Below, one piece after another: positions 5,001 through 31,386 of a DNA stretch of 64,000 bases. The position numbers and the translations under genes were made by a program. Within the stretch, counting starts at the first letter, position 1. Each line of letters starts with the position of its first letter. The stretch is from Desulfosudaceae bacterium (GTDB taxonomy: Bacteria > Desulfobacterota > Desulfobacteria > Desulfobacterales > Desulfosudaceae). The stretch is taken from assembly GCA_963674745.2 (NCBI GenBank), contig CAXXDV010000003.1:2432001-2496000 (forward strand). Reading direction: 5' to 3'. A model generated the notes under the pieces. It worked only from the letters and a program-made list of their open reading frames with translations, did no database searches and was not told where the DNA came from.

Positions 5001-6323
5001 AAGCCAGATGTTATCAGACTTTATGCGTTTTCCGTCACTGCGGACCGCTTCTGTGATCATTTTGCCCTCTTCAAACGGATCCGGAACACTGACAAAAATA
5101 AATGGGGAAGAAGATGTAAACTGCAGTTTATAGGTTGCCTCGTCTCCTGAAGGATTGGTGAACGATACCGAGGCGTCGGATGAAAGATCGGTTACATCCG
5201 AATCCCAGATCCCGGCCACAGCTTCTGACTCACATACTTTTATAACCGAATAAGGTTCCTCAAAAGATTTAACCAGAAAATCCTTGCAACCATCCCGCCC
5301 GGGCAGATCAACCAGAACGTCCTTTTCCAGCGACATGGCTGTAATACCGTCGATAATAGACGTCACCTGACCGCCAAGCGCCTCCGCATGGGATACACTG
5401 GCGGTAAACTCGGTGAATTCGCCCATCAGACTGCTGATCATCAGCCAGCGACCGACAGCGGCCTCACCCGGCGCGATGTTTCCCAGGTCCACCATCAGAC
5501 TGTTATCCGTAACCGCTCCATTGACTTCCGTGCCGATTATGGAAAATGAGACCAGTAGATCTTGATCGTTGCTGACAATTTTCGGTTGAGCCGAATCGAT
5601 TTTCAGATTGTAGGCGGTATTATTGCCGGTATTCTTGACCCGTACGCCAAGCGTGAAAGGGATTGAAGGTTCAATTACAGGACTTTCCGGAGTGCCGGTA
5701 AAGGGGTCATCACCATAAACCTGTCTTGTTAAAAAGCTGTCCAGTGTGAGTTCCGGCAACGGTTTGACAAAAATCGAATCCGGCTTGACGTCAACAACAT
5801 GTTCTTCGCCGTTGGCACCCATTTTATAGGTCAGCTTGGCTCCGACAAAATAAAGTTTGCCTTCGGGATCATCACCGGCAGAACCTGGAACAGGAATAAT
5901 CAACCAGTGAAAATCAGAAGAAGTCGAAGCCGTGACAGGATCCAACGGCCATGAGCCTCCCGAAATGGATCCAACATTGTTCGAATCCCCGCGAATAAAG
6001 AAGCAGAATTCCGGATCATCCGGGTCTGTGGTCGCATTCGTATCTGTTGTCGCAACTACGGAGGCGCCTTCTTCATCCGTAAATAAAATTTCCACATTGA
6101 GGTTTTCCAGGTCTATATTTGACAGGCCGTTGTTAATACGCATATGCGCGTCAAAAGCCTGGCGTTCCAGGGTCAATTCCTGCCGGATCTCGATTTTAAC
6201 TTTAGCGCATTGAGAATCTTCGGAACCCGCAGCTTGAGTCGAAGTCACCCAAGCTATCATAAGGCAGAAAAAACCAATTAAAAGAACAAACAACTTCTGT
6301 TTCATATTATTGGTTGTGCTCAT
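1..6323 (-). CDS. Giant secreted Ca2+-binding surface/adhesin-like protein (>2100 aa, runs off the window edge): N-terminal signal peptide, Ig/FN3-like repeats, DxDGDG motif, RTX/hemolysin-type repeat modules
   Basis: Absent from the ORF track, consistent with no stop inside the window. Manual translation from ATG 6323 gives MSTTNNMKQKLFVLLIGFFCLMIAWVTSTQAAGSEDSQCAKVKIEIRQELTLERQAFDAHMRINNG. DTDGDGMDDDWEKEYF occurs near 4.6 kb. The same frame reads GGAGNDTLDGNSGNDTLIG at positions 3-59. Not every codon in between was checked. Confidence 0.88.
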   Translation of the reverse strand, partial: MSTTNNMKQKLFVLLIGFFCLMIAWVTSTQAAGSEDSQCAKVKIEIRQELTLERQAFDAHMRINNGLSNIDLENLNVEILFTDEEGASVVATTDTNATTDPDDPEFCFFIRGDSNNVGSISGGSWPLDPVTASTSSDFHWLIIPVPGSAGDDPEGKLYFVGAKLTYKMGANGEEHVVDVKPDSIFVKPLPELTLDSFLTRQVYGDDPFTGTPESPVIEPSIPFTLGVRVKNTGNNTAYNLKIDSAQPKIVSNDQDLLVSFSIIGTEVNGAVTDNSLMVDLGNIAPGEAAVGRWLMISSLMGEFTEFTASVSHAEALGGQVTSIIDGITAMSLEKDVLVDLPGRDGCKDFLVKSFEEPYSVIKVCESEAVAGIWDSDVTDLSSDASVSFTNPSGDEATYKLQFTSSSPFIFVSVPDPFEEGKMITEAVRSDGKRIKSDNIWLYKEKVENEWAYFVNLFDVDSTGDYTVMFDTPVVNDSPDFVELDEQTGVEGDLLEFAVTATDPEGETLTLSASNLPEGADFIDNGDGTGTFNWTPAIGQAGDYAPVFRASDGHTTVVMIVPVEIRSINDTDGDGMDDDWEKEYFNDSLERDGTGDFDSDGILDLDEYLNGTDPTREDYGPSPPVIVSPAEGQDVTVFSPVLTIDNSTDPDGDTLTYDFEVFSDLQLTDRVAAAHGVAEGVDTTVWPVTVPLDDNTLYYWRVRSCDYAASSIWTYGTFFVDTANEAPGVFNISRPVVGSYVDTMTPVLEVTNSSDIDQDALTYRFEVYSDSIMTSQVTSVSDILTGTDGTTAWTVDVDLSDETTYYWKSVAVDPDGLETSTTGSFTVSTANQAPSAPAIDAPAVGARVIVHQLDIVVTNAVDPEGNTLVYDFQLDTVNTFDSSTLVTAADISEGTASTAWYVTGLFSNTTYFWRARAFDGAAYSPWVTGNFLVNPINQAPQTPTLNNPGHTAWVQSLTPELAVNPAIDPDGDVLSYYFELYSDSEFEDLVFEGSSAQPSFVVPSVLDDNTRYFWRALAEDPDGEVSEWMDGAPFFVREYSWVGTSPEITLAEPADDVFAADTFTIQWEDSDGDSNATIELYYDDDNTGENGTRINLEDIFEDPDGDTEDAYEWDISDPALLGGTWYIYAIISDETESLTVYADGSVTIGTVVGTENNDTLDGTHAVDDVIYGLGGNDTIVGYAGADTLYGGDGDDLMYGGVNDDTLIGGAGNDYMQGNLDNDTYLFAPGFGQDSISETADGGGTDIIEFTAGILPSDIVLTRSGAHLLIEVSGTDTITVAEFFGDEPNYHVEEIQFAEGTSWTREYVLSLLGPLGITLLEPSQDVYVSDTVTIQWEDSDPDNNAFIALYFDDDNTGEDGTLIVNGIAAEPDGDDDTYEWDVSGLSNGIWYIYATISDGTESLTDYANGAVIAGAMYGSEGDDALTGDATDNVMIGLGGNDTLDGSGGNDTLIGGADNDTLIGRTGNDTYVFDPGFDQDLINETSSGNGTDVIEFTAGILPADVLLSRDVDDLIIFIDGTTDQITVNEEFDSDADYRVEEIHFSDGTVWTYDDVKTMLLSGAATEGNDVIRGYHDEDDVIDGLGGNDTIYGYIGDDTLYGGAGNDTLDGNSGNDILIGGADNDTLIGRTGNDTYLFDSGFGQDLINETSSGNGTDVIEFTAGILPADVLLSRDVDDLIIFIDGTTDQITVNEEFDNDADYRVEEIHFSDGTAWTYDDVKTMLLSGAATEGNDEIRGYHDEDDVIDGLGGNDSIYGYTGDDTLYGGAGNDTLDGNSGNDTLIGGADNDTLIGRTGNDTYLFDPGFGQDLINETSSGNGTDVIEFTAGILPADVSLIRNGNDLIISIDGTTDQITVYKNFDSDADYHIELIRFAGGTEWTRDDMQSRLPLTGTEGDDLLQGYNDQDDVIDGLGGNDTIYGYTGDDTLYGSAGNDTLDGNGGNDTLIGGADNDTLIGRTGNDTYVFDPGFGQDLINETSSGNGTDVIEFTAGILPADVLLSRDVDDLIIFIDGTTDQITVNEEFDNDADYRVEEIHFSDGTAWTYDEIKTMLLSVAATEGDDEIRGYHDEDDVIDGLGGNDSIYGYTGDDTLYGGAGNDTLDGNSGNDTLIG

Positions 6324-6412
6324 TCTTTCCCCCATTGTGGTGGTTTTGTAAAAGGCGGATCAGCCCTTTTATGACCGGATATTCCGGTTGTTTTATAATA
6401 CTAAAGCGTTGC

Positions 6413-7303
6413 TTATGAATTCATCTTAACGGTCACGCCTTCCCCCTGAACGCGGAACCGGTTATATCCCTGCATACTGTTTTGGCAGGTGTCGCTGATG
6501 ATTCTGAAAGCGACATAGTCGTCTGTTTTCTGCATAAAGACACGCGTCTGGGGATCTGCCAGAAGCCAGCGCCCCTGATGATAAAATTCAGCCCAGTTAT
6601 GAAAGTCGCCGGGCGCAAGAATTTTATTTCTCCCGCAAATATATCCGCCCATTCTCCGGCAGGGGATACCTGTTGCCCGGCACAGGGCGGTAAACAGGTC
6701 CATATGTTCGGTGCAATCTCCTGCCTTTCGGGTCAGGGCGTATAGCGCCCCACGTTCATTGCGGATATAACCGGAATTTTGAATATGACCGGCGACAAAA
6801 TTGTGTATGCCCTCGGCCGTATCAACCGCTTCTTTCTTTTTTAATGCCTGCGCCTTTTTAACAACCTCCGGCTGATCGGATTCCACATATTTTTCCGGAT
6901 TCAGGAATTCATCCTGGTTTTTGTTTTGATCAGGCAAACGGTTCTGTTGATTCGAAAGCATGAGATCGGTTTTAATGTTTATAATCCGGGTGGCATATGG
7001 TGGAAGCGTGTCAAATGAAAACCTAAGGATCTGGTTACCCAGAGAATCGATCTCCAGTTCATACGGAAGGGAGGCTTCAATGGCTTTACATAATTGGGTG
7101 CCGGTCTGTTTTACCGGAGCGTATACAAAAAGGCCGGCGTTTTTTATTAACCGGTTTGTCGTATTTTGAACCGTGAAACTGTATCTGATTTGTTTAGGCA
7201 CTGTATAAGAAACAACATTGCTTTTATGTTTAAAATACAGAACAGATCCAGCCGTTAGCACCAAGATCACAGCCAACGCAGACCATAGGGCTGTCTTTTT
7301 CAT
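6413..7303 (-). CDS. Transglutaminase-like (Transglut_core) protein with N-terminal membrane anchor
   Basis: GDCTEH, HNWAEFY and LADP fit a Cys-His-Asp triad. Hydrophobic N-terminus MKKTALWSALAVILVLTAG. ATG 7303 is preceded by GAGGGTGGGGG. Confidence 0.8.
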   Translation of the reverse strand: MKKTALWSALAVILVLTAGSVLYFKHKSNVVSYTVPKQIRYSFTVQNTTNRLIKNAGLFVYAPVKQTGTQLCKAIEASLPYELEIDSLGNQILRFSFDTLPPYATRIINIKTDLMLSNQQNRLPDQNKNQDEFLNPEKYVESDQPEVVKKAQALKKKEAVDTAEGIHNFVAGHIQNSGYIRNERGALYALTRKAGDCTEHMDLFTALCRATGIPCRRMGGYICGRNKILAPGDFHNWAEFYHQGRWLLADPQTRVFMQKTDDYVAFRIISDTCQNSMQGYNRFRVQGEGVTVKMNS

Positions 7304-7816
7304 TCCCCCACCCTCTAACCAGAACGCAAGTATACGCACAAGATATTGTAATATAGAACTTTTTTTCTCCCCCGAGAAAAATAGATGCGTTTAAGCAACT
7401 AAAGTATAGTTCAAATAATATTTTCAATACTAAGTCAAGAATTTTTTAATCCATTTACCTTGATTCTACTTGAACCGGTACTATTTTTATAAAATTCACC
7501 TTAAAAAACGAACCATTAGTCGAAAGATAAATTTATCGTAATTTTGGGGGATTTTGTACTTTTGGGGACGTACTTTTGGGGACGCCTTTAATATTTCTAT
7601 ATTTAGCCCTTGGCAATTCCTCTCTATTGTTACGTATAAAATGGTTATAGAACAATGCTATCTGAAAAAAAAATAATCACCAAATATAAGAATATAAATA
7701 TGGGGTGCCCATATTGTCTACATTTTGCCCAATTTGAATTTGCATAAACACTCTTCCTGCTATATTATTATTCAAAATTTAACCAGAATAGCCGCATAAA
7801 CACATAATAAAAGAAA

Positions 7817-8701
7817 ATGAACCTGTTAATTACCGGTGCCAACGGACAACTGGGAAAAGACTGCCGGACGGTGTTCGGCGGGGCTCATACCTTGACCTGC
7901 GTGGACATTGAAGAACTGGACATCACCCGCGCAGATGACGTGTCGGCCTTTGTCCGCAACATCAAGCCGGGGGTCATTATCAACTGCGCCGCATATACCC
8001 AGGTCGACCGGTGTGAGACAGAGCAGGAACCGGCCCGGGCCGTCAATGTGACCGGCGCCGAAAACCTGGCCGAAGGTGCTGCCGACTGCGGGGCGCTGAT
8101 GGTTCACATTTCAACCGATTATGTTTTTGACGGCCAGAAGGACTATCCGGAAACCTATACCGAAACCGATGCCACCGCCCCTCAGTCCGTCTATGGCCTC
8201 ACCAAGCTGGAGGGGGAGCAGGCCGTCATACGGTGCACGGACAATCACCTGATTCTCAGAACCGCCTGGCTTTACGGGTTTCACGGCCACAATTTCATCA
8301 AAGCCATTCTCAAAAAAGCTCTGGCCGATCCGGAAACGCCGTTTAAAGTCGTCAACGACCAGTTCGGAACACCCACCTGGAGCATGGCCCTGGCCCGCCA
8401 GATCGCCGAACTGATTGATCCGCCGGCCCGGGGGCTGTATCACGCATCGGCCGAAGGCGCCTGTACCTGGTATGCGTTCGCCCGGTATTTTCTGGAAAAG
8501 CTGCAGGTGCCCCACCGGATGGTCACCTGCACCACCGAAGAATATCCCACGCCGGCAAAGCGGCCCCATTGTGCCATTCTGGAGAACCGGCGGCTGGCGG
8601 CTGAAGGACGAAACCGGATGGCACACTGGCAATCGGCTCTGGACGAATATATAAATCAATACGGACCGGCCTTGCTGGATGAATGCCGGCCATCAAATTA
8701 A
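7817..8701 (+). CDS. rfbD: dTDP-4-dehydrorhamnose reductase
   Basis: GANGQLG, HISTDYVFDG, YGLTK, DQFGTPT. Confidence 0.95.
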   Translation: MNLLITGANGQLGKDCRTVFGGAHTLTCVDIEELDITRADDVSAFVRNIKPGVIINCAAYTQVDRCETEQEPARAVNVTGAENLAEGAADCGALMVHISTDYVFDGQKDYPETYTETDATAPQSVYGLTKLEGEQAVIRCTDNHLILRTAWLYGFHGHNFIKAILKKALADPETPFKVVNDQFGTPTWSMALARQIAELIDPPARGLYHASAEGACTWYAFARYFLEKLQVPHRMVTCTTEEYPTPAKRPHCAILENRRLAAEGRNRMAHWQSALDEYINQYGPALLDECRPSN

Positions 8702-9960: not shown

Positions 9961-10854
9961 ATGAAAGGTATAATATTGGCCGGCGGCTCCGGCACCCGGC
10001 TCTACCCCCTGACACGGGTCACCAGCAAGCAACTGCTGCCGGTCTACGACAAACCCATGATCTATTACCCCCTGTCCGTCCTCATGCTGAGCGGCATCCG
10101 GGACATCCTGATCATCTCCACCCCCCAGGACCTGCCCAATTTCAAGGCCCTGCTCGGGGACGGGTCCTGGCTGGGGCTTTCTTTGACCTATGCCGAACAA
10201 CCCCAACCCGAAGGCCTGGCCCAGGCGTTTATCATCGGCGCCCCGTTTATCGGCGATGATCCGGCCTGCCTGATTCTGGGGGACAACCTCTTTCACGGGC
10301 ACAGCCTGCCCGGCATCATCAAAAGGGCCAGTCAAACACCATCGGGTGGCGTGGTTTTCGGGTATCGCGTCAATGACCCGGAGCGTTACGGCGTAGTGGA
10401 ATTTGACGATCAGGGCAATGTCATCGGCATCGAGGAAAAACCGCAAGCGCCCAAATCCAAATACGCCGTGTCCGGTCTTTATGTTTATGACAACGCCGTC
10501 ATTGATATTGCCCGCGGGCTTAAACCTTCCGACCGCGGTGAACTGGAGATTACGGATGTAAACCTGGAATACCTTAAAAGGGGCGCCCTGAAAGTGGAAA
10601 TCCTCGGACGGGGTTTTGCCTGGATGGACATGGGCACCCATGAATCCATGCAGCAGGCAGCCGCATACGTGCGGGCGGTACAGAACCGGCAGGGATTCAA
10701 AATCGCCTGTATTGAAGAAATCGCCTATCGCCTGGGATATATCGACAGCAACCAGTTAAAACTGATCGCCTCGGAAATGGCTAAAAACGACTATGGCCAA
10801 TACCTTTACGAAATCGCTGAACTCACCCCCACGGAACTGGTCAAATGGCTTTAA
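9961..10854 (+). CDS. rfbA: Glucose-1-phosphate thymidylyltransferase
   Basis: [40 protein letters not shown]. Confidence 0.97.
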
Positions 10855-14805: not shown

Positions 14806-14858
14806 TTGACTTGACCAATCAAACTGATAATATATTGGACGGATGACCGAACAATATA
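14806..14858 (+). promoter_or_regulatory. Putative sigma70 promoter overlapped by a palindromic TetR operator
   Basis: TTGACT at 14806 and TAATAT at 14828 (16-bp spacer). Imperfect palindrome TATATTGgaCGGatgaCCGaaCAATATA at 14831-14858, about 30 bp upstream of the tetR ATG. Confidence 0.55.
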
Positions 14859-14887: not shown

Positions 14888-15526
14888 ATGGGTAGAAAAA
14901 GCATGGCGGACGAGCGCCGCCAGGAAATCATCGAAGCTTTTTACTATTGTGTCAATGACGGCGGACTGGCCAACGCGTCCATTCGCAAAATCGCCCGGCA
15001 GGCCGGGGTCCAACCCAGCATCATCCATCATTATTTTAAGGACCGGGATGAAATGATTGAAAATATGGTGGTTTTTTTCGCGGACACCATTTTCGACAGT
15101 TTCATCGAGGAAATGGAGCAGCATGGAAATCCGGAAACAAAATTTTTCAAGGCCCTGGAATTCATGTACAGCCCGGGCATGATTAATAAGGAATACTCCG
15201 GTTTTTTCCTGGAATGTTGCGTAGAAGCACGCCGCAACCCCAAGGTTAAAGCCACTCTGGCCAGAACTTTTCGCCATTTTCGGCAGACCATCATTGCCTA
15301 TATTGAAGAAATGAACATCCTGGAAAACCTGACGAAAACACAGAAAGAAAATTACGCCTCCATGCTTATCGCCATTCACGAGGGGCTGGAGTTGCAGTGG
15401 TATCTAGATCCCAAAGCCGTTTCTCTGAAAAAAGCCACGGCCCTGACCCGCTATGTGATTGACCTGATGATCGCGGACAGTATGCGGACGGCCACCTTAG
15501 AAGCAGGGACCGCATTAACCCGATAA
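14888..15526 (+). CDS. TetR/BetI-family transcriptional regulator
   Basis: N-terminal HTH: ERRQEIIEA..ASIRKIARQAGVQPSIIHHYFKDRDE. Confidence 0.92.
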   Translation: MGRKSMADERRQEIIEAFYYCVNDGGLANASIRKIARQAGVQPSIIHHYFKDRDEMIENMVVFFADTIFDSFIEEMEQHGNPETKFFKALEFMYSPGMINKEYSGFFLECCVEARRNPKVKATLARTFRHFRQTIIAYIEEMNILENLTKTQKENYASMLIAIHEGLELQWYLDPKAVSLKKATALTRYVIDLMIADSMRTATLEAGTALTR

Positions 15527-15548
15527 TCCATTAAAGGCCATTTGAAAA

Positions 15549-16667
15549 ATGATTACAGGTATTTTAAAAGAAATCAAACAGGAAGAGCACCGGGTGGCCA
15601 TGACGCCGGCCGGTGCGGAACTCATGCATCAGCACGGCCACCAGGTTCTGGTAGAAAAAAATGCCGGTGAGGGCAGTGGCTATGATGACTGCCGTTACCA
15701 GGAGGCCGGGGCCGAGATCGTTGCAACGGCGGAAGAAATTTTCAACCGGGCCGACATGGTCATGCATGTCAAGGAGCCGCTGAAAAGTGAATACAACCTT
15801 TTGCGGCCCAGTCAGATTTTGTTTACCTACCTGCATTTGGCGGCCAATCAGGAGCTGACCGAGGCGCTGATCAAAAGCGGTGCCGTGTGCATTGCTTATG
15901 AAACGATTCAGAAAGCGGACAAGTCCCTGCCCTTGCTGACGCCGATGAGTGAAGTCGCCGGGCGGATGGCCGTACAGGAAGCCGCTAAATTTCTGGAAAT
16001 TCCCAACGGTGGCCAGGGCATACTGCTGGGCGGCGTTCCCGGAGTCGCACCGGGTAACGTGTTGGTCATCGGTGGCGGCGTAGTCGGTGTCAATGCCGCC
16101 AAAATGGCCTGCGGCCTGGGAGCCAGTGTGACCCTGCTGGATACGGATCTGGAACGGTTACGATACCTGTCTGATGTCATGCCCAAAAACTGCTTTCTGT
16201 TAATGTCGACACCGGCCGCCGTCCGCAAGCTGGTTCCCATGGCCGATGTGGTCATCGGCGCGGTTCTGCTTCCCGGTGGCGCCAGGGCCCCCCGGCTGGT
16301 GACCCGTGACATGCTTAAAACCATGAAAAAAGGGGCTGTCCTGGTGGACGTGGCCATTGACCAGGGCGGCTGTTTTGAAACCTCCCGACCGACGACCCAC
16401 GGCGACCCGGTTTTTATGGAAGAAGGCGTGGTACATTACTGCGTGGCCAATATGCCGGGTGCGGTAGCCAAAACATCCACCCAGGCACTGACCAATGCCA
16501 CCCTGCCCTATGCCCTTGAAATAGCGGACAAAGGTTGGCGGCAGGCCATGAAGGAAAACATGGAAATCCAGTATGGCGCAAATATTATTGAAGGTAAGGT
16601 GACCTGCCGGGGCGTAGCCGACGCCTTTACCATGGAATGCGAATCAATGGAAACGTTACTGTCCTGA
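15549..16667 (+). CDS. ald: Alanine dehydrogenase
   Basis: KEIK..EHRVA, FTYLHLAA, PMSEVAGR, DVAIDQGGCFETS, HYCVANMPGAV. Confidence 0.96.
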   Translation: MITGILKEIKQEEHRVAMTPAGAELMHQHGHQVLVEKNAGEGSGYDDCRYQEAGAEIVATAEEIFNRADMVMHVKEPLKSEYNLLRPSQILFTYLHLAANQELTEALIKSGAVCIAYETIQKADKSLPLLTPMSEVAGRMAVQEAAKFLEIPNGGQGILLGGVPGVAPGNVLVIGGGVVGVNAAKMACGLGASVTLLDTDLERLRYLSDVMPKNCFLLMSTPAAVRKLVPMADVVIGAVLLPGGARAPRLVTRDMLKTMKKGAVLVDVAIDQGGCFETSRPTTHGDPVFMEEGVVHYCVANMPGAVAKTSTQALTNATLPYALEIADKGWRQAMKENMEIQYGANIIEGKVTCRGVADAFTMECESMETLLS

Positions 16668-16769
16668 TAAACCTTCGGATATCCGGGCAGGCTTGTTTGA
16701 TATAGCAGCTGGGGACTGACGCATTAACCGGCAAATGTCCCTCTAAACCTCTAAAAAAGGAGGCTGACG

Positions 16770-17534
16770 TTGAACTATCAATCTATTCTGGCAGCACTTA
16801 ACCTGCAGGCGGTGCTGCCCAACCTCGAGGACATTGTCCGGCATGACCCGTCTGCGGCCGATATCGCGGGCAAAAAAGATATCAGCATTCAGTTTCTGGT
16901 CAGAAACGGTCCGGCCGCCGGTGTTGAATTTAAAAACGGCGCCTGCACCGTCACCAGTGGCAAGCGGGCCGATGCCGATGTAAAACTTTTTTTTACATCC
17001 TGCGACCATTTGAACAAAATGTTCAAGAACCAGTCCAATCCCATTCCGATCAAGGGATTCACCAAGCTTGGTTTCCTGACAAAAGAGTTCACTCAGATTA
17101 CCCAGCGGATGGAACATTTTTTGACCCCGGATGACAAGCTTCTGGAACAGGCGGACTACATGGCCCTTAACACATTGCTGACGTTGAACACGGCCGCACG
17201 GGCCATTTGCATCATCATCCAGGGGGACCCGGCGGCAAAAAATGTGGCCGCCGGTATACCCGATGGGACGATCATGCTCAAAGTGCTTCCGGAAGGTCCT
17301 GCGGCTACCGTTTCTTTCCAGAACCGGCAGGCGACCATGCTCCCGGGAGAAGTTGACAAGCCGTCGGCCATCATGCTCATGAAAGACATGAAGACCGCTA
17401 ATGATCTGTTAAACCAGAAGCTGGACGCCTTTTCGGCCATCGCCCTGGGAGACATCATGATCTGGGGGCAGACACCCATGATTGACTGCCTGGACCTTAT
17501 CCTGGACCGAATCCCGCATTACCTGCAACCATGA
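16770..17534 (+). CDS. Hypothetical protein with probable tandem SCP2-like (lipid-binding) domains
   Basis: Two strand-rich segments, each followed by ADVKL or PSAIM. C-terminal LLNQKLDAFSAIALGDIMIWG resembles the SCP2 signature. TTG start after AGGAGG. Confidence 0.6.
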   Translation: MNYQSILAALNLQAVLPNLEDIVRHDPSAADIAGKKDISIQFLVRNGPAAGVEFKNGACTVTSGKRADADVKLFFTSCDHLNKMFKNQSNPIPIKGFTKLGFLTKEFTQITQRMEHFLTPDDKLLEQADYMALNTLLTLNTAARAICIIIQGDPAAKNVAAGIPDGTIMLKVLPEGPAATVSFQNRQATMLPGEVDKPSAIMLMKDMKTANDLLNQKLDAFSAIALGDIMIWGQTPMIDCLDLILDRIPHYLQP

Positions 17535-17563
17535 GTAATGCCTGTATAAAAAGTCAACAATGG

Positions 17564-17687
17564 GATGGCAAAGTAAAAAGCACAAGGTCAAGGCGCGCAA
17601 ATCACGAGGAATGCAGCGTACTAGATCGTACGTGAAATTCCGAGAGATGCAGCGCAACGTAGAGATTGGGCTTTTTACGAAGCCATC
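17564..17687. mobile_element. 124-bp MITE-like element with 18-bp terminal inverted repeats, inside the operon
   Basis: GATGGCAAAGTAAAAAGC ... GCTTTTTACGAAGCCATC (15/18 complementary). Confidence 0.7.
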
Positions 17688-17701
17688 ATGAGAGAGGCAA
17701 C

Positions 17702-18940
17702 ATGAAAACATATACTTTTCAAAAATCAAGAGAACTGTTTCAAAAAGCGTCCCGTCTCATCCCCTGCGGCATATACGGGCACTTCAGTCCGGCGCCGCTG
17801 ATCCCGCCGGAGCATTATCCTTTTTACGCGGAAAAAGCGTCCGGTGCCCGCATAACGGATGTAGACGGCAATGAATTCGTCGACTATATGTGCGCCTACG
17901 GCCCCATGGTACTGGGGTACAATCATGAAGGCGTGGACAGGGCCGCCGCCGCTCAGCGCGAAAAGGGAAACTGCCTGTCAATGCCGTCACCGATCATGGT
18001 GGAGCTGGCCGAAAAACTGGTCGACACGGTTTCCATCGCCGACTGGGCTTTTTTTGCCAAAAACGGCAACGATGTCACCACTTACGCCCTCATGACCGCC
18101 AGAAAAGCCACGGGCAGGAAAAAAATCGTTTGCATCAAAGGCGGCTATCACGGTGTGGCGCCTTGGACGCAAGGTTACGGCCACCATGGCATCATGGAAG
18201 AAGACGGCCGGCATATCATCCGCATTCCCTGGAATGATATCGGCGCCCTGGAAGCGGCTATCGACCGGAACCCGGACCAGATTGCCGGCTTCATGGCCTG
18301 TCCTTATCATCACCCCACCTTTGTGGATAATGAAATGCCGGCCGATGGTTACTGGCAGAACGTGGAACGTATCTGCCGCCGACACGGCATCGTGCTGATA
18401 GTCGATGACATCCGTTGTGGATTTCGGCTGGACATCCGGGGATCAAACGAATATTTCGGATTCAAACCGGATCTGATCTGTTTCTGCAAGGCCATCGGCA
18501 ACGGTTATCCCATCTCGGCCCTGGTCGGTGTCGAGTCGTTGAAAAACGACGCCGCCAAAGTATTCTACACCGGCAGTTACTGGTTTTCGGCGGTCCCCAT
18601 GGCCGCGGCCATCGCCACCATCGACGAGATGAAACGGATCAATGCCACCAAAACCATGCTCTCTTTCGGCGAAAAACTGCGGGACGGGCTGATCTCCAGC
18701 GCCCAACAGCATGGTTTCGACCTGAAGGTTACGGGTCATCCCGCCATGCCCTACCTGCGCATCACCGATGATCCCACCCTCATGCTGCATCAGAAATGGT
18801 GCGGCGAATGCACCCGCCGGGGCGCTTTTTTCACATCTCACCATAACTGGTTTGTATCAACAGCCCATAATGATGAAGACCTTGACCTGACCCTGCAAAT
18901 CGCCGACGCGGCTTTTGAAGCAGTTAAACAGCAATCATAA
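17702..18940 (+). CDS. Class III PLP-dependent aminotransferase, FumI (aminopentol aminotransferase)-like
   Basis: DYMCAYGP, ADWAFFAKNG, DDIRCGFR, PDLICFCK (PLP Lys), GYPISAL and TGSYWFSAVPMAAAI match my recollection of Sphingopyxis FumI, not HemL. Confidence 0.85.
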   Translation: MKTYTFQKSRELFQKASRLIPCGIYGHFSPAPLIPPEHYPFYAEKASGARITDVDGNEFVDYMCAYGPMVLGYNHEGVDRAAAAQREKGNCLSMPSPIMVELAEKLVDTVSIADWAFFAKNGNDVTTYALMTARKATGRKKIVCIKGGYHGVAPWTQGYGHHGIMEEDGRHIIRIPWNDIGALEAAIDRNPDQIAGFMACPYHHPTFVDNEMPADGYWQNVERICRRHGIVLIVDDIRCGFRLDIRGSNEYFGFKPDLICFCKAIGNGYPISALVGVESLKNDAAKVFYTGSYWFSAVPMAAAIATIDEMKRINATKTMLSFGEKLRDGLISSAQQHGFDLKVTGHPAMPYLRITDDPTLMLHQKWCGECTRRGAFFTSHHNWFVSTAHNDEDLDLTLQIADAAFEAVKQQS

Positions 18941-18962
18941 CAACATGACGGAGGCAACGATA

Positions 18963-19799
18963 ATGGCTTTATCACAAGAAGAATTCACATTATTAAATGA
19001 AAAAGCCCGACAGGCCCGAAGGGACATCGTCGATATCACCGGTTGGTCCGGCGGCGCCCATATCGGCGGCGGATTATCGGTGGTGGATATGCTGATTATC
19101 CTTTACTACAAGTACATGAACATCAACCCCCAGCAACCCGACTGGGAGGACCGTGACCGCTTCATTCTCAGCAAGGGTCACGCCGGGGTGGCTTACGCGC
19201 CGGTACTGGCAAGAAAAGGCTACTTTGATTTCGACCTGCTTAAAACCTTCAACAAATTCAAATCACCCTTTGGCATGCACCTGGACGGCGGCAAGGTCAA
19301 GGGTGTGGATGCGTCTACCGGCTCCCTGGGACACGGGCTGCCCATAGGCGTGGGCATGGCACTTGGCGCAAGGCTGCAGAAGAAAGACTGGTGGACATAC
19401 TGTATCCTGGGTGACGGCGAATGTAACGAAGGCTCGATCTGGGAAGCGGCCATGGCTGCCAGTCATTTCAAGCTGACCAACCTGATCACCTTCGTGGACA
19501 AAAACAGGCTGATGATCGACGGCACCACCGAAGAGGTCATGGGCCTGGAGCCCCTGGCGGACAAATGGACCGCCTTCGGCTTTATTGTAAAAGAGGTGGA
19601 TGGCCACAGTTTCGAGGAACTGGCTGCCGCCATCGATTATGCCCACAGTAAACCCGGGCAACCGGTGGTCATCATCGCCAATACGGTTAAAGGCAAAGGT
19701 GTCGATTTTATGGAAAACGAGGTTAAATGGCATTACGGCGGGCTGGATACGGCGCTGCTGGAAAAGGCCCACCAGTCCATAGATAAAATGTACGCCTGA
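18963..19799 (+). CDS. Transketolase-like N-terminal (TPP-binding) subunit
   Basis: RDRFILSKGHA, TGSLGHGL, LGDGECNEG, TVKGKGV. Confidence 0.95.
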   Translation: MALSQEEFTLLNEKARQARRDIVDITGWSGGAHIGGGLSVVDMLIILYYKYMNINPQQPDWEDRDRFILSKGHAGVAYAPVLARKGYFDFDLLKTFNKFKSPFGMHLDGGKVKGVDASTGSLGHGLPIGVGMALGARLQKKDWWTYCILGDGECNEGSIWEAAMAASHFKLTNLITFVDKNRLMIDGTTEEVMGLEPLADKWTAFGFIVKEVDGHSFEELAAAIDYAHSKPGQPVVIIANTVKGKGVDFMENEVKWHYGGLDTALLEKAHQSIDKMYA

Positions 19800-19865
19800 T
19801 AACGGCCGATAATAAATCAGACATGAAATCATCATTATTAAATTTTCAGATAACAGGAGTCAATT

Positions 19866-20876
19866 ATGAGTGAAGGCATCACCTGGACGGTTTATGACGC
19901 GGATACCATGACCCAGGCTGAGATATACGGTCAGGTATTATGCGATCTGGGAAAAATCAATCCGAAGATTGTCGGATTATCCGCAGACCTGGCCAAGTCC
20001 ACTAAAATCGGCCGTTTTCAGGACCATTTCCCGGAACGTTTTTTCAACGTCGGCATCGCGGAGCAGAATCTGTTCGGTGTGGCCGCGGGCCTGGCCAAGA
20101 CCGGCCTGCTGCCGTTCGTATCCACCATGGCCGCGTTTTCATCCATGCGGGCCGCCGAGCAGGTCAGGACCGACATCTGCTACCAGAACCTGGACGTCAA
20201 AATTATCGCCACCCACGGCGGTGCTTCTTTCGGCCAGGCCGGAACCACCCATCACTGCACCGAAGATATCGCCATCATGCGGTCTTTCGCCAACATGACC
20301 GTGATTGTACCGGCCGACGGCATAGAAATGGCCAATGTGGTCAAACAGTGTGTCGATTATCCGGGCCCGGTTTATATCCGTATCGGCCGCGGATTTGAAC
20401 CCCGCCATTATGAAAACGAGGAATACGGATTTACCATTGGCAAGGCCGTGGAATTATCCCAGGGTACGGACATTACCATCATCTGCTGCGGTATCACCGT
20501 GTTCCACGCCATGGAAGCGGCCAAGGTACTGACGGAAGATGACAAGCTGTCGGTACGCGTGCTCAACATGCATACCATCAAACCGCTGGATGAAGAAGCC
20601 GTCATGAAAGCCGTCACGGAAACCCGGCGATTGATCGTCTTTGAAGAGCACAATGTCAACGGCGGATTGGGCAGTGCCGTGGCCGATGTCATTGCGCAAA
20701 GCGGCAAAGGCTGCGCTTTCAAAAAAGTCGGTATTCCGGACTGTTTCTGTGAAGTCGGTTATCCGGAAGACCTTTATACCCACTACCGGCTGGACACGGA
20801 CGGTATCATCGAAACCGTGCGGGAAGTGATGAATATCGAATTTGAAGAGGACGAAGACTGGGAAGACGAGGTATAA
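19866..20876 (+). CDS. Transketolase-like C-terminal (pyrimidine-binding) subunit
   Basis: ADLAKST, GIAEQN, THGG, GPVYIR, HTIKPLD, EEHNVNGGLG. Confidence 0.95.
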   Translation: MSEGITWTVYDADTMTQAEIYGQVLCDLGKINPKIVGLSADLAKSTKIGRFQDHFPERFFNVGIAEQNLFGVAAGLAKTGLLPFVSTMAAFSSMRAAEQVRTDICYQNLDVKIIATHGGASFGQAGTTHHCTEDIAIMRSFANMTVIVPADGIEMANVVKQCVDYPGPVYIRIGRGFEPRHYENEEYGFTIGKAVELSQGTDITIICCGITVFHAMEAAKVLTEDDKLSVRVLNMHTIKPLDEEAVMKAVTETRRLIVFEEHNVNGGLGSAVADVIAQSGKGCAFKKVGIPDCFCEVGYPEDLYTHYRLDTDGIIETVREVMNIEFEEDEDWEDEV

Positions 20877-20877
20877 C

Positions 20878-21651
20878 ATGGCGACAGAAAAAGAGCTCAT
20901 GACGTCGAGGATTTTTTTACGTGCCGTTCTGCCGGTGATCAAGGTGCTGGTGGAAGAAGACCCTAAAATCAATAAAAAATTTGCCTCCGTCAGCGCCCGG
21001 GTGCAGTTTGTGGCCAAAGACCCCGCCGGAAGCATCGGTGCCTGTCTGGTATTTGACCAGGGTGATTTTCAGGTCGAGCAGGGCATAACAGACAAGCCGG
21101 ACATCACCTTTTCCTTCGGCAGTGTAGCGGCCATGAATGCCATGTTCGCCGGCAAACCGGCCCTGCCGATGATAAAGGGGTTGTTAAAAGTCGGGCTGCT
21201 GATAAAGGTAATGACCCTGCTGCTGGCTTTAAAACTGCTCATGCCGAACAACCGCCCCACAGACCCTGAAAAAAGACGGCTCAAGGTCAAAATGACCTTC
21301 TACATGATCACCACCGCGCTGTCCCAGTACAACAAAGGCGGAGACCCGGAAATGGTAAAATGGACCGGTTCACAACCGGAGCGCATCTACCAGATCACGG
21401 TTGATGATGATATCGCCGCTTACCTTCGCGTCAAAGCCGGAAAAACCAAAGCCGGTCGGGGAAAATACACCAAGCGACGCCCCTTTATTCACATGAAGTT
21501 TAACGGTGTGGACGGCGCCATGCCGGTCGTCCTGAATGATGTGGATATGGTTACGGCCGTCAAGGAAGGATTTCTGTCGGTTGATGGGCCGCCGGAATAC
21601 GGTCGGGATATCGGTGATTTTATGATGCGCATCCAGAACCTGATTACTTAA
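20878..21651 (+). CDS. Hypothetical protein with probable SCP2-like domains
   Basis: RVQFVA..ACLVFDQGDFQVEQG..KPDITFSF..MNAMFAGK, and a second segment ending DMVTAVKEGFLSVDG. Architecture is similar to 16770-17534. Confidence 0.55.
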   Translation: MATEKELMTSRIFLRAVLPVIKVLVEEDPKINKKFASVSARVQFVAKDPAGSIGACLVFDQGDFQVEQGITDKPDITFSFGSVAAMNAMFAGKPALPMIKGLLKVGLLIKVMTLLLALKLLMPNNRPTDPEKRRLKVKMTFYMITTALSQYNKGGDPEMVKWTGSQPERIYQITVDDDIAAYLRVKAGKTKAGRGKYTKRRPFIHMKFNGVDGAMPVVLNDVDMVTAVKEGFLSVDGPPEYGRDIGDFMMRIQNLIT

Positions 21652-21653
21652 AA

Positions 21654-21829
21654 GGATTCAAGGGTTCGAGGGGGCAAGGGGTCAAGGGGTCAAGGGAAAG
21701 GCTAAAAACAATGAACGGGCGCACACTTGAACGCTCGGTTTATTTCCTGAGTCTTTTTGTGTTTCGTGCATCGGCAGGCAAGTTGCCGCCCCCCCCCTCG
21801 ACCCCTTGAATCCTCGCCCCCCTGAACCC
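21654..21829. repeat. Inverted pair of octamer tandem arrays (GGGGTCAA-like) between convergent genes
   Basis: ggattcaa gggttcga gggggcaa ggggtcaa ggggtcaa (21654-21693) versus tcgacccc ttgaatcc tcgccccc ctgaaccc (21798-21829). Confidence 0.85.
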
Positions 21830-28369: not shown

Positions 28370-30073
28370 TCAGGGCAGATCCGCTGATGAAATACGCACG
28401 CAATAGCCGGGGCCGACAGGGATATCCTTCAAAAATCGCAGCCGGTATTCATCCGGCATCGACTGACCCGGCGGGAGGTTTCCGGTGGCCGGGTCAGGCC
28501 GCTGCAATACCAGAATATGATTATAATATATCTGCTTTAAGCGGCGCAGTTGTTTCACCCGGCGGCGGGAAAAATCAAAACCAACGGATCCCACTTTGTG
28601 AATAGCATAAAAATTGGGACGGTCCGAGATAATCAGCAGCTTCTCCAGGTCCGGGTCATAGTTGGCTTCGATGTAGTCAAGCACCCGGTTATATTCATAA
28701 GTCATTGATTTCCCCTGGACAAGCATCTGCTTTTCAGCCACCGGCCAATAATGAACAAGTTGAACGACCGCCAGAAAGATGATGACGCCCCGCCAGGGAT
28801 TTTTCGTCCCTGGAAAACAACGGCGAACGGCATAAACCGCGGGGACAACCAGGAAGGGCAAAAAAACCATGGCCAGCCGATTATCGATGTCCGTTGCAAA
28901 GTCGCCCCAGTAGAATGCCGAATAAAGAAGAAAAAGCACTGCAGCGCAGAAAAGTCCGTAAAAAACGGCGGACCGGCTGACGTCATTTATGCGATCCGCC
29001 TTTTGGAACGTCCGCTTAACCAAACTGTACATGCCGACCGCGGCCAGAACGAACAACACCGGCACAAAGCCGTAATCTGAATTAAGCCCGGACAGCACAA
29101 ATATATTGGGTTGAAAATGCTGCGCCAGATTGGCCGGACCGAAAAGCTGGTCCGCCACCTGACGCGTATCACCGGCCAGGACCGCTCCGGAAAAAAAATA
29201 AAGGCGACGCTGCCAGATCAGGGGCAGCAACAGGACCGGGCACAAGAGCGTTGGCAGACGATAGCCAAGAATCATGTCCCGGGAAATAAACCTGGGGGCA
29301 AGCACCACCAGTCCGATGATAAAAACAGCTGATTCATAACGGCAGAAAGCCAGCAATACCAGCGACAGGAAAAGGCGTTCAGCGTGCTCAACCCGGCGGG
29401 TTTTTAAAAAGTCATAAAGCATGACCAGCGTGAAGATAACAAAAAACAGATTCACTAATTCAAAACCGCTGGAGGTTCCCCAGATGAGAAAAATCGGGCA
29501 GGCGGCCGTCAGCAGCACCCCGAGGATACCGTAAAATGGTGAAAAAACGCGGGCGAGCAGGACATATATAAAAAACAGGGCCAAAACACCGGCAACGAAG
29601 TTGACGACAAAACCATTGTACGGGCTGTACCCCAGCAGGGCATGAAGCAATGAAACAAAAAACGGGTAACCCGGAGGACGCTGGTCGATATCACCGGCGT
29701 AATCATATTCGCCGTAATCAAGCGCCAGTCCCTGGAGCGGCACGGAAACGGTTTTGTTTTTATGCATGGCCATGGAAACACCGACCAGGTTGGTCTCATC
29801 CGCCAGAATTTTAAACTGCGGCGGCAAGAGATGAAACACCAGTACCATGACCGCGGCGCAAAGCAGCAGCCCGCCGTAATGGGTCTTGACCAGCGTCCTG
29901 ATCCGACCGCCTGCCGTCCGGATGACGAGCCCGCCCCAGAGGACAAACGCAGCCAATACAAAATAGTAGGCGCTGTGATTGAATACCGGCCTCAGCCACC
30001 GGTGTGGGAAAAAAAAACCTGCCGCAAGTGTTGCGGAAACAACAACGACAAAGAATATGATGCGTCTTGCCAT
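28370..30073 (-). CDS. Polytopic membrane protein, probable GT-C glycosyltransferase
   Basis: Many TM segments, ILADE acidic pair after the first TMs, RPPGYPF, CRYE. Confidence 0.65.
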   Translation of the reverse strand: MARRIIFFVVVVSATLAAGFFFPHRWLRPVFNHSAYYFVLAAFVLWGGLVIRTAGGRIRTLVKTHYGGLLLCAAVMVLVFHLLPPQFKILADETNLVGVSMAMHKNKTVSVPLQGLALDYGEYDYAGDIDQRPPGYPFFVSLLHALLGYSPYNGFVVNFVAGVLALFFIYVLLARVFSPFYGILGVLLTAACPIFLIWGTSSGFELVNLFFVIFTLVMLYDFLKTRRVEHAERLFLSLVLLAFCRYESAVFIIGLVVLAPRFISRDMILGYRLPTLLCPVLLLPLIWQRRLYFFSGAVLAGDTRQVADQLFGPANLAQHFQPNIFVLSGLNSDYGFVPVLFVLAAVGMYSLVKRTFQKADRINDVSRSAVFYGLFCAAVLFLLYSAFYWGDFATDIDNRLAMVFLPFLVVPAVYAVRRCFPGTKNPWRGVIIFLAVVQLVHYWPVAEKQMLVQGKSMTYEYNRVLDYIEANYDPDLEKLLIISDRPNFYAIHKVGSVGFDFSRRRVKQLRRLKQIYYNHILVLQRPDPATGNLPPGQSMPDEYRLRFLKDIPVGPGYCVRISSADLP

Positions 30074-30089
30074 GATCTTCCGGCTCTTT

Positions 30090-31298
30090 TTAAACCTTAT
30101 TTAAAATTTTATATGCTTTGTCCAGCACAACTTCCGGCTTGATTGCCTCCAGACATAAATTATTGCCGTTGCAGGGAGAATTCCGGTGGTTATATGCCGT
30201 CAGGCAGGGGGAACAGGACCAGCCGGAAAAAAGGTTTACGGCGTTTGGGTTCATGGAACCATACAGAACCGGTGTTTCCGGCCCATACAGAATAATGCTG
30301 GGCAGCGATACCAGGCCGGCAAAATGTCCGGGACCGCCGTCATTGGTGATCAGTAGGCGTGAGAGACTGAATACCACCAGCAGTTCTCGCAGGCAACGGG
30401 TAAAACCGGTCATATCAACAATCTGGCCGGCTGAACCGCATTCAACGATCTGACGCGCCAGCCCCTGATCTTCCGGAGGTCCGGTCACTGCTACCACAAA
30501 CCCTTTTTCTGCCAGAGATCGGGCCACCCGGCAGTAGTAATCCGGAGGCCAGGCCCGTATGGGCAACAGCCCCCCCCCGGGATGCAAAATAACCGGGGAC
30601 GTTTCGGAAATATTAACCAGAGAAAAATGATCCCGTATCCGCGCTACCATCTCTTCTTTCTCGGTTTTCCGAATCTCGATTTGCGGCAATTCGGGCGCCT
30701 GTTCTGAAATCGGGCGTTTACATATGGGTACCTCCGAATGGTCTATGGCTTCTGCCAGGCTGACAAACTGGCGGGCAATATGCAGATAGGGATTATATAA
30801 CACCGGTCGATTGATGAAATCACCCCGGTAAAGCCCTTCCTGGGTATGGCGATGAAAGCCCACCCGAACCGGAGCCCCGGAAAAAAAGGCATAAATACTG
30901 CTGATTCTGGAAAACAGTTCACAGTCAATGACCACATCCGGCCGCTGTTGCCTCATCCTGAAAAAGAACTTCATGCTGTCAAAAACAAGTCCTGAAAACG
31001 ACCGGTCATTTACGGTTTGTATATTGTCCCGTCCCGTTAACCCGATGATATCGATAATTTCAATATTGCGCTCAAAGGTCAGAATATGCAGTGACGCCTG
31101 TGGAAATTTCTCCTGCAATCGTTTGATCATGGGCCAGGTCATGGTCAGGCTGCCCATCTCAGACAGCAGTATGATGAGTATCCGGTTGATCGGCCCACGG
31201 TCGGTATCTTTGCGCCAGATCAATGACAACAGTGACAACAACCGGCATATCAAGGGACCGGCAGTCCGATCAATTATCCGTTGGGTGGCTACTTTCAA
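30090..31298 (-). CDS. Glycosyltransferase family 9 (heptosyltransferase-like)
   Basis: LSEMGS, LHPGGG..RAWP, LITNDGGPGHFA, LYGPE, CSPC. Confidence 0.88.
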   Translation of the reverse strand: MKVATQRIIDRTAGPLICRLLSLLSLIWRKDTDRGPINRILIILLSEMGSLTMTWPMIKRLQEKFPQASLHILTFERNIEIIDIIGLTGRDNIQTVNDRSFSGLVFDSMKFFFRMRQQRPDVVIDCELFSRISSIYAFFSGAPVRVGFHRHTQEGLYRGDFINRPVLYNPYLHIARQFVSLAEAIDHSEVPICKRPISEQAPELPQIEIRKTEKEEMVARIRDHFSLVNISETSPVILHPGGGLLPIRAWPPDYYCRVARSLAEKGFVVAVTGPPEDQGLARQIVECGSAGQIVDMTGFTRCLRELLVVFSLSRLLITNDGGPGHFAGLVSLPSIILYGPETPVLYGSMNPNAVNLFSGWSCSPCLTAYNHRNSPCNGNNLCLEAIKPEVVLDKAYKILNKV

Positions 31299-31386
31299 TC
31301 AACACCTCATTTATCAACGTACAAGTTTATTAAACCACCTGTCATACCCAAGGACAACCAGACGGGTTAAATCCTGTCGGGATAAA

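Follow-up and report, generated by a model that had tools for sequence, protein, structure and literature searches.

We analysed a 64,000-nucleotide stretch of the genome of a Desulfosudaceae bacterium (contig CAXXDV010000003.1, forward strand; hereafter the window) and a seven-gene operon within it. All seven genes lie in one direction on the + strand, as the ORF listing and family scans showed and as an earlier reading of the letters had stated. They encode a TetR-family regulator, alanine dehydrogenase (Ald), an SCP2-like protein (SCP2a), a class III aminotransferase (AT), the two subunits of a split transketolase (TktN and TktC) and a second SCP2-like protein (SCP2b). Our reading, put forward with moderate confidence, is that these genes form an operon under a repressor and that its products break down (or detoxify) hydrophobic, sphingoid-type vicinal amino-alcohols. 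Among single candidate substrates free sphingoid bases come first, an assignment we make tentatively. The sequence-only reading had proposed that sphingoid bases are degraded by the AT and the transketolase acting in turn. The affinity of the AT to the fumonisin aminotransferase FumI, the SCP2 carriers, the co-conservation of the genes and the altered transketolase pocket speak for that proposal, while stereochemistry and the holders without a ceramidase speak against it.

Results

A five-gene core is conserved across phyla

Relatives were collected by scanning a single genome of each species with a degenerate pattern, which gave 496. Counts below are from the best 80 loci, each scored by tblastn with the seven window proteins. 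SCP2a was counted where a locus had at least 900 bp upstream (76 loci), and TktN, TktC and SCP2b where it had at least 3.8 kb downstream (60 loci). SCP2a was present in 75 of the 76 loci, and TktN, TktC and SCP2b were all present in 51 of the 60. The core SCP2a-AT-TktN-TktC-SCP2b was co-linear in 51/60 related loci, and AT and transketolase genes were adjacent or translationally coupled in nearly all. No locus with room carried the transketolase without SCP2b. An intact transketolase was missing despite room from eight of the 60 loci (L005, L010, L015, L017, L018, L019, L038 and L042), and one more (L022) had a partial one.

The holders belong to at least seven phyla: Thermodesulfobacteriota, Spirochaetota (including Leptospira), Actinomycetota (Thermoleophilia), Bacteroidota, Nitrospirota, Hydrogenedentota and Chlorobiota. 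AT identity across them is 61-89%. Cultured holders include Desulfatibacillum alkenivorans DSM 16219, Desulfosarcina widdelii PP31 and Draconibacterium aestuarii. The co-conservation that the sequence-only reading had asked about thus extends far outside the lineage of the window. Of the 201 genomes sampled from the window's order, 27 carry the AT (22/149 if only those of high quality are counted), and it is thus an accessory trait there. The AT tree largely follows the phyla, with 12 label changes against a minimum of 8; recent horizontal spread is not supported by this count.

The genes outside the core have a narrower distribution. Ald was near the module in 10/80 loci, in two arrangements (co-directional in seven, divergent in three), and the window-type TetR in 6/80, upstream in L001, L002, L003, L005, L007 and L009; all of these loci are from Desulfobacterota. 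It had been claimed that the proposed pathway gives every gene a role. That holds in this lineage only; outside Desulfobacterota neither Ald nor the window-type TetR was linked in the 80 loci. A second TetR type occurred near the module in nine loci and a cyclic-nucleotide (cNMP)-binding regulator in 10. When the 1005 ORFs of the 80 loci were clustered and the recurrent clusters searched with Pfam, the other recurrent neighbours were major facilitator superfamily (MFS) and glyoxalase genes. Beyond the five-gene core nothing recurred in more than 10/80 loci, save opposite-strand shadow ORFs in high-GC loci.

Several loci depart from the common order. In L004 (4178-8825) TktN-TktC-SCP2b is inverted and lies upstream of SCP2a-AT; the two halves of the cassette behave as separable units. 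In L005, from a Desulfococcus metagenome-assembled genome (MAG), a 40-aa TktN remnant is fused to the last ~104 aa of SCP2b (10230-10658), either through a deletion of the transketolase or as an assembly artefact. L010 (Deltaproteobacteria MAG) has a transporter of the sodium:neurotransmitter-symporter family directly upstream of SCP2a-AT (6491-7963) and no module-type transketolase. A conserved protein of 473-502 aa without a Pfam match follows the AT in eight loci. Seven Spirochaetota loci without the transketolase (L015, L017, L018, L019, L025, L028 and L038) have SCP2a-AT followed by this protein (L017:4432-5853). The Spirochaetota loci of this kind sit among AmgK/MurU/NamZ-like cell-wall recycling genes and GlmS.

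The aminotransferase is related to FumI

Searched against all PDB sequences, the AT had as its top match 6hbs, the structure of FumI ('aminopentol aminotransferase'; E 2e-103, 349.7 bits). The next was HemL (3bs8), at 174.4 bits. A hand count on the alignment to 6hbs gave ~168 identities in 402 aligned positions, or ~42% identity. Three sequence blocks had been named as shared with FumI before any search was made, and this was correct. DYMCAYGP, ADWAFFAKNG and TGSYWFSAVPMAAAI are all present in the AT translation, and the matching blocks of FumI are identical or near-identical. The protein has the class III aminotransferase fold with its pyridoxal phosphate (PLP)-binding lysine: Lys263 (CFCKAIGNGYP) aligns with the lysine of FumI and HemL and is invariant in 26 family members.

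The NCBIfam models for HemL and GntE scored far under their cut-offs on the AT (TIGR00713, 213 bits against a cut-off of 527), and a separate true HemL is encoded elsewhere in the same genome (629 bits, cut-off 527). Judged by bit scores and curated cut-offs, the AT appears to be a nearer relative of FumI than of HemL or any other class III subfamily. A grouping with HemL had been named in advance as a result that would undo the sphingoid proposal; the scores place the protein with FumI instead. FumI converts hydrolysed fumonisin B1 (the 2-amino-3,5,10,14,15-pentol) to the 2-ketone, with pyruvate as the preferred acceptor (PMC3136697, excerpt), and the adjacent Ald fits this preference. Homologues 61-74% identical to known fumonisin transaminases also deaminate hydrolysed fumonisin (PMC9858248, excerpt).

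The split transketolase has an altered pocket

TktN and TktC had their best PDB matches in the split transketolase of Carboxydothermus hydrogenoformans (ChyTK; 6yak and 6yaj, E 2e-78 and 5e-80), with human transketolase ranking after it for both subunits. The PP domain lies on TktN and the Pyr and C domains on TktC, and the thiamine diphosphate (ThDP)/Mg motif GDGE...NR is kept, as expected of a split transketolase. Numbering human residues from chain coordinates in the alignments, we found the positions of human H37, H77, H110, H258, E366, S345, H416 and R474 kept in TktN/TktC. The position aligned to human residue 428 is His, as in bacterial transketolases.

Two pocket residues are replaced. 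TktC has Ala18 where human transketolase has R318 (ChyTK R36), and Ala125 in place of the Asp in the GEDG motif (human D424); we take these positions to be R358 and D469 of the Escherichia coli enzyme. The replacements were followed in 59 TktC orthologues, that is, the window and those 58 of the 80 loci whose TktC match reached 50% identity and a length of 250 aa. Of these 59, 58 have Ala and one has Gly at position 125; at position 18 there are 49 with Ala, five with Asn, three with Arg and one each with Ser and Thr. Both the full-length transketolase and the Dxs of the same genome keep Asp at position 125. The sugar-phosphate pocket (R358, S385, H461, R520 and D469 in E. coli numbering) is therefore incomplete, with the R358 and D469 positions replaced and the Ser, the His and the second Arg kept.

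In the E. coli enzyme R358, S385, H461 and R520 bind the substrate phosphate, and D469, with H26, H100, H261 and H473, bonds the sugar hydroxyls (PMC11387542, excerpt). A split transketolase with Leu at D469 gave the top pentanal conversion among the split transketolases tested, below that of full-length E. coli transketolase (PMC13663882, excerpt). The missing Asp fits a substrate without a C4-hydroxyl, in which the released aldehyde would have a plain alkyl alpha-carbon. If the product were an unhydroxylated, unphosphorylated alkyl aldehyde, loss of the C4-hydroxyl Asp and of one phosphate-binding Arg would be expected.

SCP2a is predicted to be a double-SCP2 protein and to dock on the aminotransferase

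The Pfam PF02036 matches of SCP2a and SCP2b are barely above the gathering score, and sequence profiles of the two searched against PDB sequences gave marginal matches only (E 0.024 and 0.67). The SCP2 assignment, first made from sequence, was borne out by the fold. An AlphaFold model of SCP2a, made with a 27-row alignment, has two SCP2-type halves (pLDDT 93, pTM 0.89). Foldseek matched it to SCP2, UbiJ-SCP2 and the SCP2-like C-terminal domain of alkylsulfatases, with target-normalised TM-scores of ~0.6-0.7. The model was made for SCP2a, and SCP2b was assigned by paralogy: the two proteins fall in one BLAST cluster and SCP2b matches the SCP2a profile at E 8e-18. Both are thus predicted to be tandem double-SCP2 folds. 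SCP2 carriers bind a lipid in a hydrophobic tunnel, as these two proteins may.

A complex of SCP2a with the AT was predicted with a score of 0.77, and the best of three controls scored 0.00. The mark of 0.77 was reached by 116/157 solved complexes and by 2/215 mismatched pairs, a rough calibration since custom alignments were used. Contact agreement between runs was at least 93%, and partner pLDDT at least 89. The predicted interface joins the C-terminal SCP2 half of SCP2a (154-246) to AT residues 10-41, 158-166 and 358-364. Many of the interface residues of the AT are invariant within its family, whereas those at 158-162 and 358-364 are not conserved in FumI. The model supports binding of SCP2a to the AT. 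We know of no solved complex of an SCP2 protein with an aminotransferase.

A neutral ceramidase co-occurs with the aminotransferase in some lineages

The same genome encodes a neutral ceramidase homologue of 678 aa (PF04734, 181 bits), ~2.3 Mb from the operon; PF04734 matched in 0/14 control genomes. In the sample of the window's order PF04734 was present in 17/201 genomes. Eleven genomes had both the AT and PF04734, 16 the AT only, six PF04734 only (one below the cut-off) and 168 neither. PF04734 therefore occurs in 11/27 AT-positive and 6/174 AT-negative genomes (odds ratio 19, Fisher 2e-7, values that kinship inflates). Counted by genus, the two occur together in seven genera of five families, against 2.1 expected by chance (hypergeometric 9e-4, again inflated by kinship). 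These figures are suggestive of an AT-ceramidase link limited to certain lineages.

The ceramidase homologue (L089:8586-10622; G000:C3, ~162.6-164.6 kb) stands beside two genes for the D component of 2-hydroxyacyl-CoA dehydratase (HGD-D). It also adjoins a TetR gene and an FGE-sulfatase-like gene; this context is uninformative.

Proposed mechanism

On the sphingoid reading, the double-SCP2 protein SCP2a would hold the lipid amine and dock over the entrance of the FumI-like AT, which would transfer the C2 amino group to pyruvate. In Desulfobacterota, Ald would return the alanine to pyruvate, releasing NH4+ and NADH. The 3-hydroxy-2-ketone product is a ketol, which the specialised split transketolase would cut between C2 and C3. 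A long-chain aldehyde would be freed for oxidation to the fatty acid, and the C2 unit would pass to an acceptor aldose. SCP2b would handle the lipid ketol or aldehyde on the transketolase side, and TetR would free the promoter once the lipid amine is present. The anaerobic character that had been claimed for the pathway is an inference from its holders.

Several observations weigh against this mechanism, or against sphingoid bases as its substrate. D-erythro-sphinganine is 2S,3R and the fumonisin backbone 2S,3S, so natural D-erythro sphingoid bases would yield a 3R ketol, a mismatch with S-selective transketolases. Transketolases make and use the 3S configuration, and ten split transketolases stay S-selective (PMC13663882, excerpt). 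Cleavage of the D-erythro-derived ketol would need reversed selectivity, epimerisation at C3, or a threo (3S) substrate like the fumonisin backbone. Given the 2S,3S backbone of fumonisin, amino-alcohols of the threo or 1-deoxy kind suit the stereochemistry of transketolase better than natural sphingoid bases do.

Three of the four phosphate-binding positions are retained in TktC, which leaves room for a sugar-phosphate substrate; since these residues remain, the acceptor of the C2 unit may itself still be a sugar phosphate. Seven of the eight loci without an intact transketolase keep SCP2a-AT (L042 also lacks SCP2a), and the AT can thus work without the transketolase. No fatty-aldehyde dehydrogenase, acyl-CoA ligase, ceramidase, lipid transporter or FadL-type gene is conserved beside the module in the 80 loci. 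A search of sequencing runs for the locus listed none from RNA. PF04734 was not found in 16 AT-positive genomes of the order. Among five module-bearing genomes checked in other lineages, three (a Leptospira MAG, a Thermoleophilia MAG and Desulfosarcina widdelii) gave no ceramidase match and two had only partial N-domain homologues.

Alternative explanations

Many of the same observations would suit a different hydrophobic amine as substrate, or a transketolase that does not act directly on the AT product. Candidate amines are fumonisin- or AAL-like aminopolyols, 1-deoxysphingoids, capnine-type sulfonolipids, amino-hopanoids or a sediment lipid. The range of lipids bound by SCP2 folds is wide, and UbiJ and alkylsulfatase domains are among the best fold matches of SCP2a. 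The 3S ketone of hydrolysed fumonisin would match the stereochemistry of transketolase and DXS, SCP2a-AT persists where the transketolase is missing, and many holders have no ceramidase. Hydrolysed fumonisin, the substrate of those family members that have been characterised (PMC3136697 and PMC9858248, excerpts), is a 1-deoxy threo amino-polyol. The close coupling of AT and transketolase genes in nearly all loci argues against this alternative, as does, more weakly, the expectation that fumonisin-type compounds are uncommon where the relatives occur, in sediments, mats and wastewater. Two of the transketolase histidines that contact the sugar hydroxyls hold the C1-hydroxyl of the donor, which would favour a hydroxymethyl ketol over a methyl ketone. 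The positions of the sugar-hydroxyl-bonding histidines of the E. coli enzyme (PMC11387542, excerpt) are all kept in TktN/TktC. We regard another amine, or an indirect role of the transketolase, as rather unlikely.

The pathway might also run in reverse, as biosynthesis. A 1,3-dihydroxy-2-alkanone would then arise as the transketolase joined a fatty aldehyde with a C2 ketol unit, and the AT would aminate this ketone with alanine supplied by Ald. A sphingoid-like 2-amino-1,3-diol would be made without serine palmitoyltransferase, with the SCP2 proteins carrying the lipid intermediates. Both the transketolase and the transaminase reactions run both ways, the five-gene core needs neither a transporter nor a downstream enzyme, and the AT tree stays rather close to the phyla. 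A natural transketolase-aminotransferase pair, AniP/AniQ, is used for anisomycin (PMC11387542, excerpt), and split transketolases accept aliphatic aldehydes (PMC13663882, excerpt). However, local TetR-type repressors and the linkage to Ald are typical of catabolic amine operons, and the nearest characterised relatives of the AT are all degradative. Neither an acyltransferase nor a head-group gene lies nearby in the 80 loci, and the co-occurrence with ceramidase points toward breakdown. A membrane-lipid pathway would be expected clade-wide, whereas the AT is patchy within the order. Biosynthesis is improbable on this evidence.

That the operon is a chance meeting of housekeeping genes, a HemL paralogue for tetrapyrrole synthesis beside a pentose-phosphate transketolase, is extremely improbable: sources do label AT homologues glutamate-1-semialdehyde aminomutase, and the best NCBIfam matches are HemL and transketolase models, but all these scores are under their cut-offs, the genome has its true HemL, full-length transketolase and Dxs elsewhere, the five genes are held together across phyla, and the transketolase pocket is altered.

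Features of the locus

The features of the operon are listed in Table 1. The region 14806..14858, which takes in the promoter-like site and the palindrome, is a candidate operator of the TetR repressor. On the TetR protein itself every NCBIfam match was under its cut-off. Three gene starts were refined. The AT starts at ATG 17702, with the ribosome-binding site GAGAGAGG ahead of it, and TktN at ATG 18945, 4 nt past the AT stop. SCP2b starts at ATG 20878, 1 nt past the TktC stop; this spacing suggests that it is translationally coupled to TktC. From that start SCP2b is 257 aa long, a length typical of its orthologues.

Table 1. Features of the operon, with positions in the window
Feature	Position	Strand	Evidence
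Promoter-like site, TTGACT-16-TAATAT with TG	14806-14833	+	Consensus scan
Palindrome TATATTGGACGG/CCGAACAATATA, 12-nt arms, overlapping the promoter-like site before tetR	14831-14858	+	Inverted repeat
TetR-family regulator with BetI-type C-terminal domain	14888-15526	+	PF00440 + PF13977
Alanine dehydrogenase, Ald	15549-16667	+	TIGR00518, 504.3 bits, cut-off 391.85 (equivalog level)
SCP2a, SCP2-like	16770-17534	+	PF02036, 23.0 bits, cut-off 21.3
Class III (PLP) aminotransferase AT, FumI-like	17702-18940	+	PF00202, 136 bits
TktN, split transketolase N-terminal (ThDP/PP-domain) subunit	18945-19799	+	PF00456
TktC, split transketolase C-terminal subunit (Pyr + C domain)	19866-20876	+	PF02779 + PF02780
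SCP2b, SCP2a paralogue	20878-21651	+	PF02036, 25.4 bits
Terminator-like hairpin 3' of SCP2b, putative function	21733-21752	+	Consensus scan

The spacer between SCP2a and the AT (17535-17701) is 167 nt long, and in most related loci this gap is no more than ~30 nt. It contains a small hairpin, CGTAC-TAGATC-GTACG, and a repeated ATGCAGCG, and may be an internal regulatory element. The neighbours are unrelated to the operon: CheR lies upstream, and AmiC and MutS downstream on the other strand.

Elsewhere in the window, on the - strand, an ORF of at least 2111 aa (3-6335) leaves the window and carries RTX calcium-binding repeats and HCBP_related domains. A second - strand region (28370-36370) holds envelope genes: a PMT_2 glycosyltransferase, a GT9 heptosyltransferase, two TPR proteins and a VKOR-DsbA fusion. 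AT skew in this region is unusually strong, up to 0.25.

Discussion

Eukaryotic and Bacteroidota biomass is rich in sphingoid bases, which have antimicrobial activity. To our knowledge, almost nothing has been established on how bacteria degrade them, and no route has been described from anoxic habitats. The cassette supplies a concrete set of enzymes, and cultured holders, with which to take up this question. If the proposal is right, bacteria of at least seven phyla, many of them in groups known mainly as anaerobes, turn free sphingoid bases into a fatty aldehyde and a C2 unit borne on a sugar phosphate. Transketolase chemistry would then reach lipid ketols, and hand-off between SCP2 proteins and enzymes would extend beyond ubiquinone synthesis. 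The full picture would be an ATP-free breakdown of sphingoid bases, independent of kinase and lyase, with the first transketolase to have a lipid as its natural donor and a dedicated double-SCP2 protein docked on each enzyme; we think it possible but doubtful. If the pathway instead ran in reverse, the cassette would be a way to sphingoid bases that is independent of serine palmitoyltransferase.

D469 and R358 are engineering hotspots of transketolase, and transketolase-transaminase cascades to amino-diols have been built artificially. A D469A/R358A pocket that evolved in nature bears directly on biocatalysis because it falls at these positions. The ~500 species of relatives would also supply a large pool of FumI homologues for mycotoxin detoxification.

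The enzyme families are known. What is new is their combination, a transketolase that seems adapted to lipid, and the paired SCP2 carriers; full-text literature gave no description of the cassette or of a transketolase-based sphingoid route among the matches listed. Pseudomonas aeruginosa sphBCD is a case in which bacteria metabolise sphingosine by enzymes that are still unresolved (PMC11893366, excerpt).

For the carriers, the closest known systems are UbiJ and UbiT of ubiquinone biosynthesis, which share the SCP2 fold with SCP2a (Foldseek matches 6h6p, 6h6n and 6h6o). UbiJ and UbiT present lipid to soluble enzymes. Unlike them, the fold here is predicted to be duplicated in tandem and occurs in two paralogues, SCP2a tied to the AT and SCP2b to the transketolase.

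FumI of Sphingopyxis sp. MTA144 and its relatives FumIB, FumTSTA, FumPHTA and FumUPTA share the class III PLP fold with the AT. FumI shares with it the DYMCAYGP, ADWAxFxKNG and TGSxWFSAVPMAAAI blocks and the PLP-lysine motif. The gene context differs, since the AT is accompanied by the SCP2 pair and the split transketolase. The host of FumI is an aerobic sphingomonad, whereas most holders of the AT, Leptospira and Thermoleophilia apart, belong to groups known chiefly for anaerobes.

TktN and TktC have the two-subunit architecture, the catalytic His and Glu residues and the ThDP/Mg motif in common with ChyTK (6yak/6yaj) and with the panel of split transketolases in PMC13663882 (excerpt). In contrast to ChyTK and canonical transketolases, the D469 and R358 equivalents are replaced family-wide in TktC, mostly by Ala, and the subunits are always encoded with an SCP2 protein. 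Their donor would be a lipid ketol, whereas that of ChyTK and canonical transketolases is a ketose phosphate.

The route by sphingosine kinase and sphingosine-1-phosphate lyase yields a fatty aldehyde and a C2 fragment. It reaches the same end as the pathway proposed here, a cut of the sphingoid base between C2 and C3. The operon has neither a kinase nor a PLP lyase; deamination would come first, followed by ThDP-dependent cleavage, and no ATP would be spent.

Taurine:pyruvate aminotransferase (Tpa) with Ald is a system of pyruvate-dependent amine catabolism, and the sulfo-transketolase pathway one of transketolase-dependent catabolism. The operon shares with the first the logic of a pyruvate-using aminotransferase with Ald recycling the pyruvate, and with the second the use, as proposed, of a split transketolase as a catabolic enzyme that cleaves a carbon-carbon bond. 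The substrates of those systems are small sulfonates and sulfosugars, and they have no SCP2 carriers; nor do they join the two ideas in one operon, as the locus described here would do.

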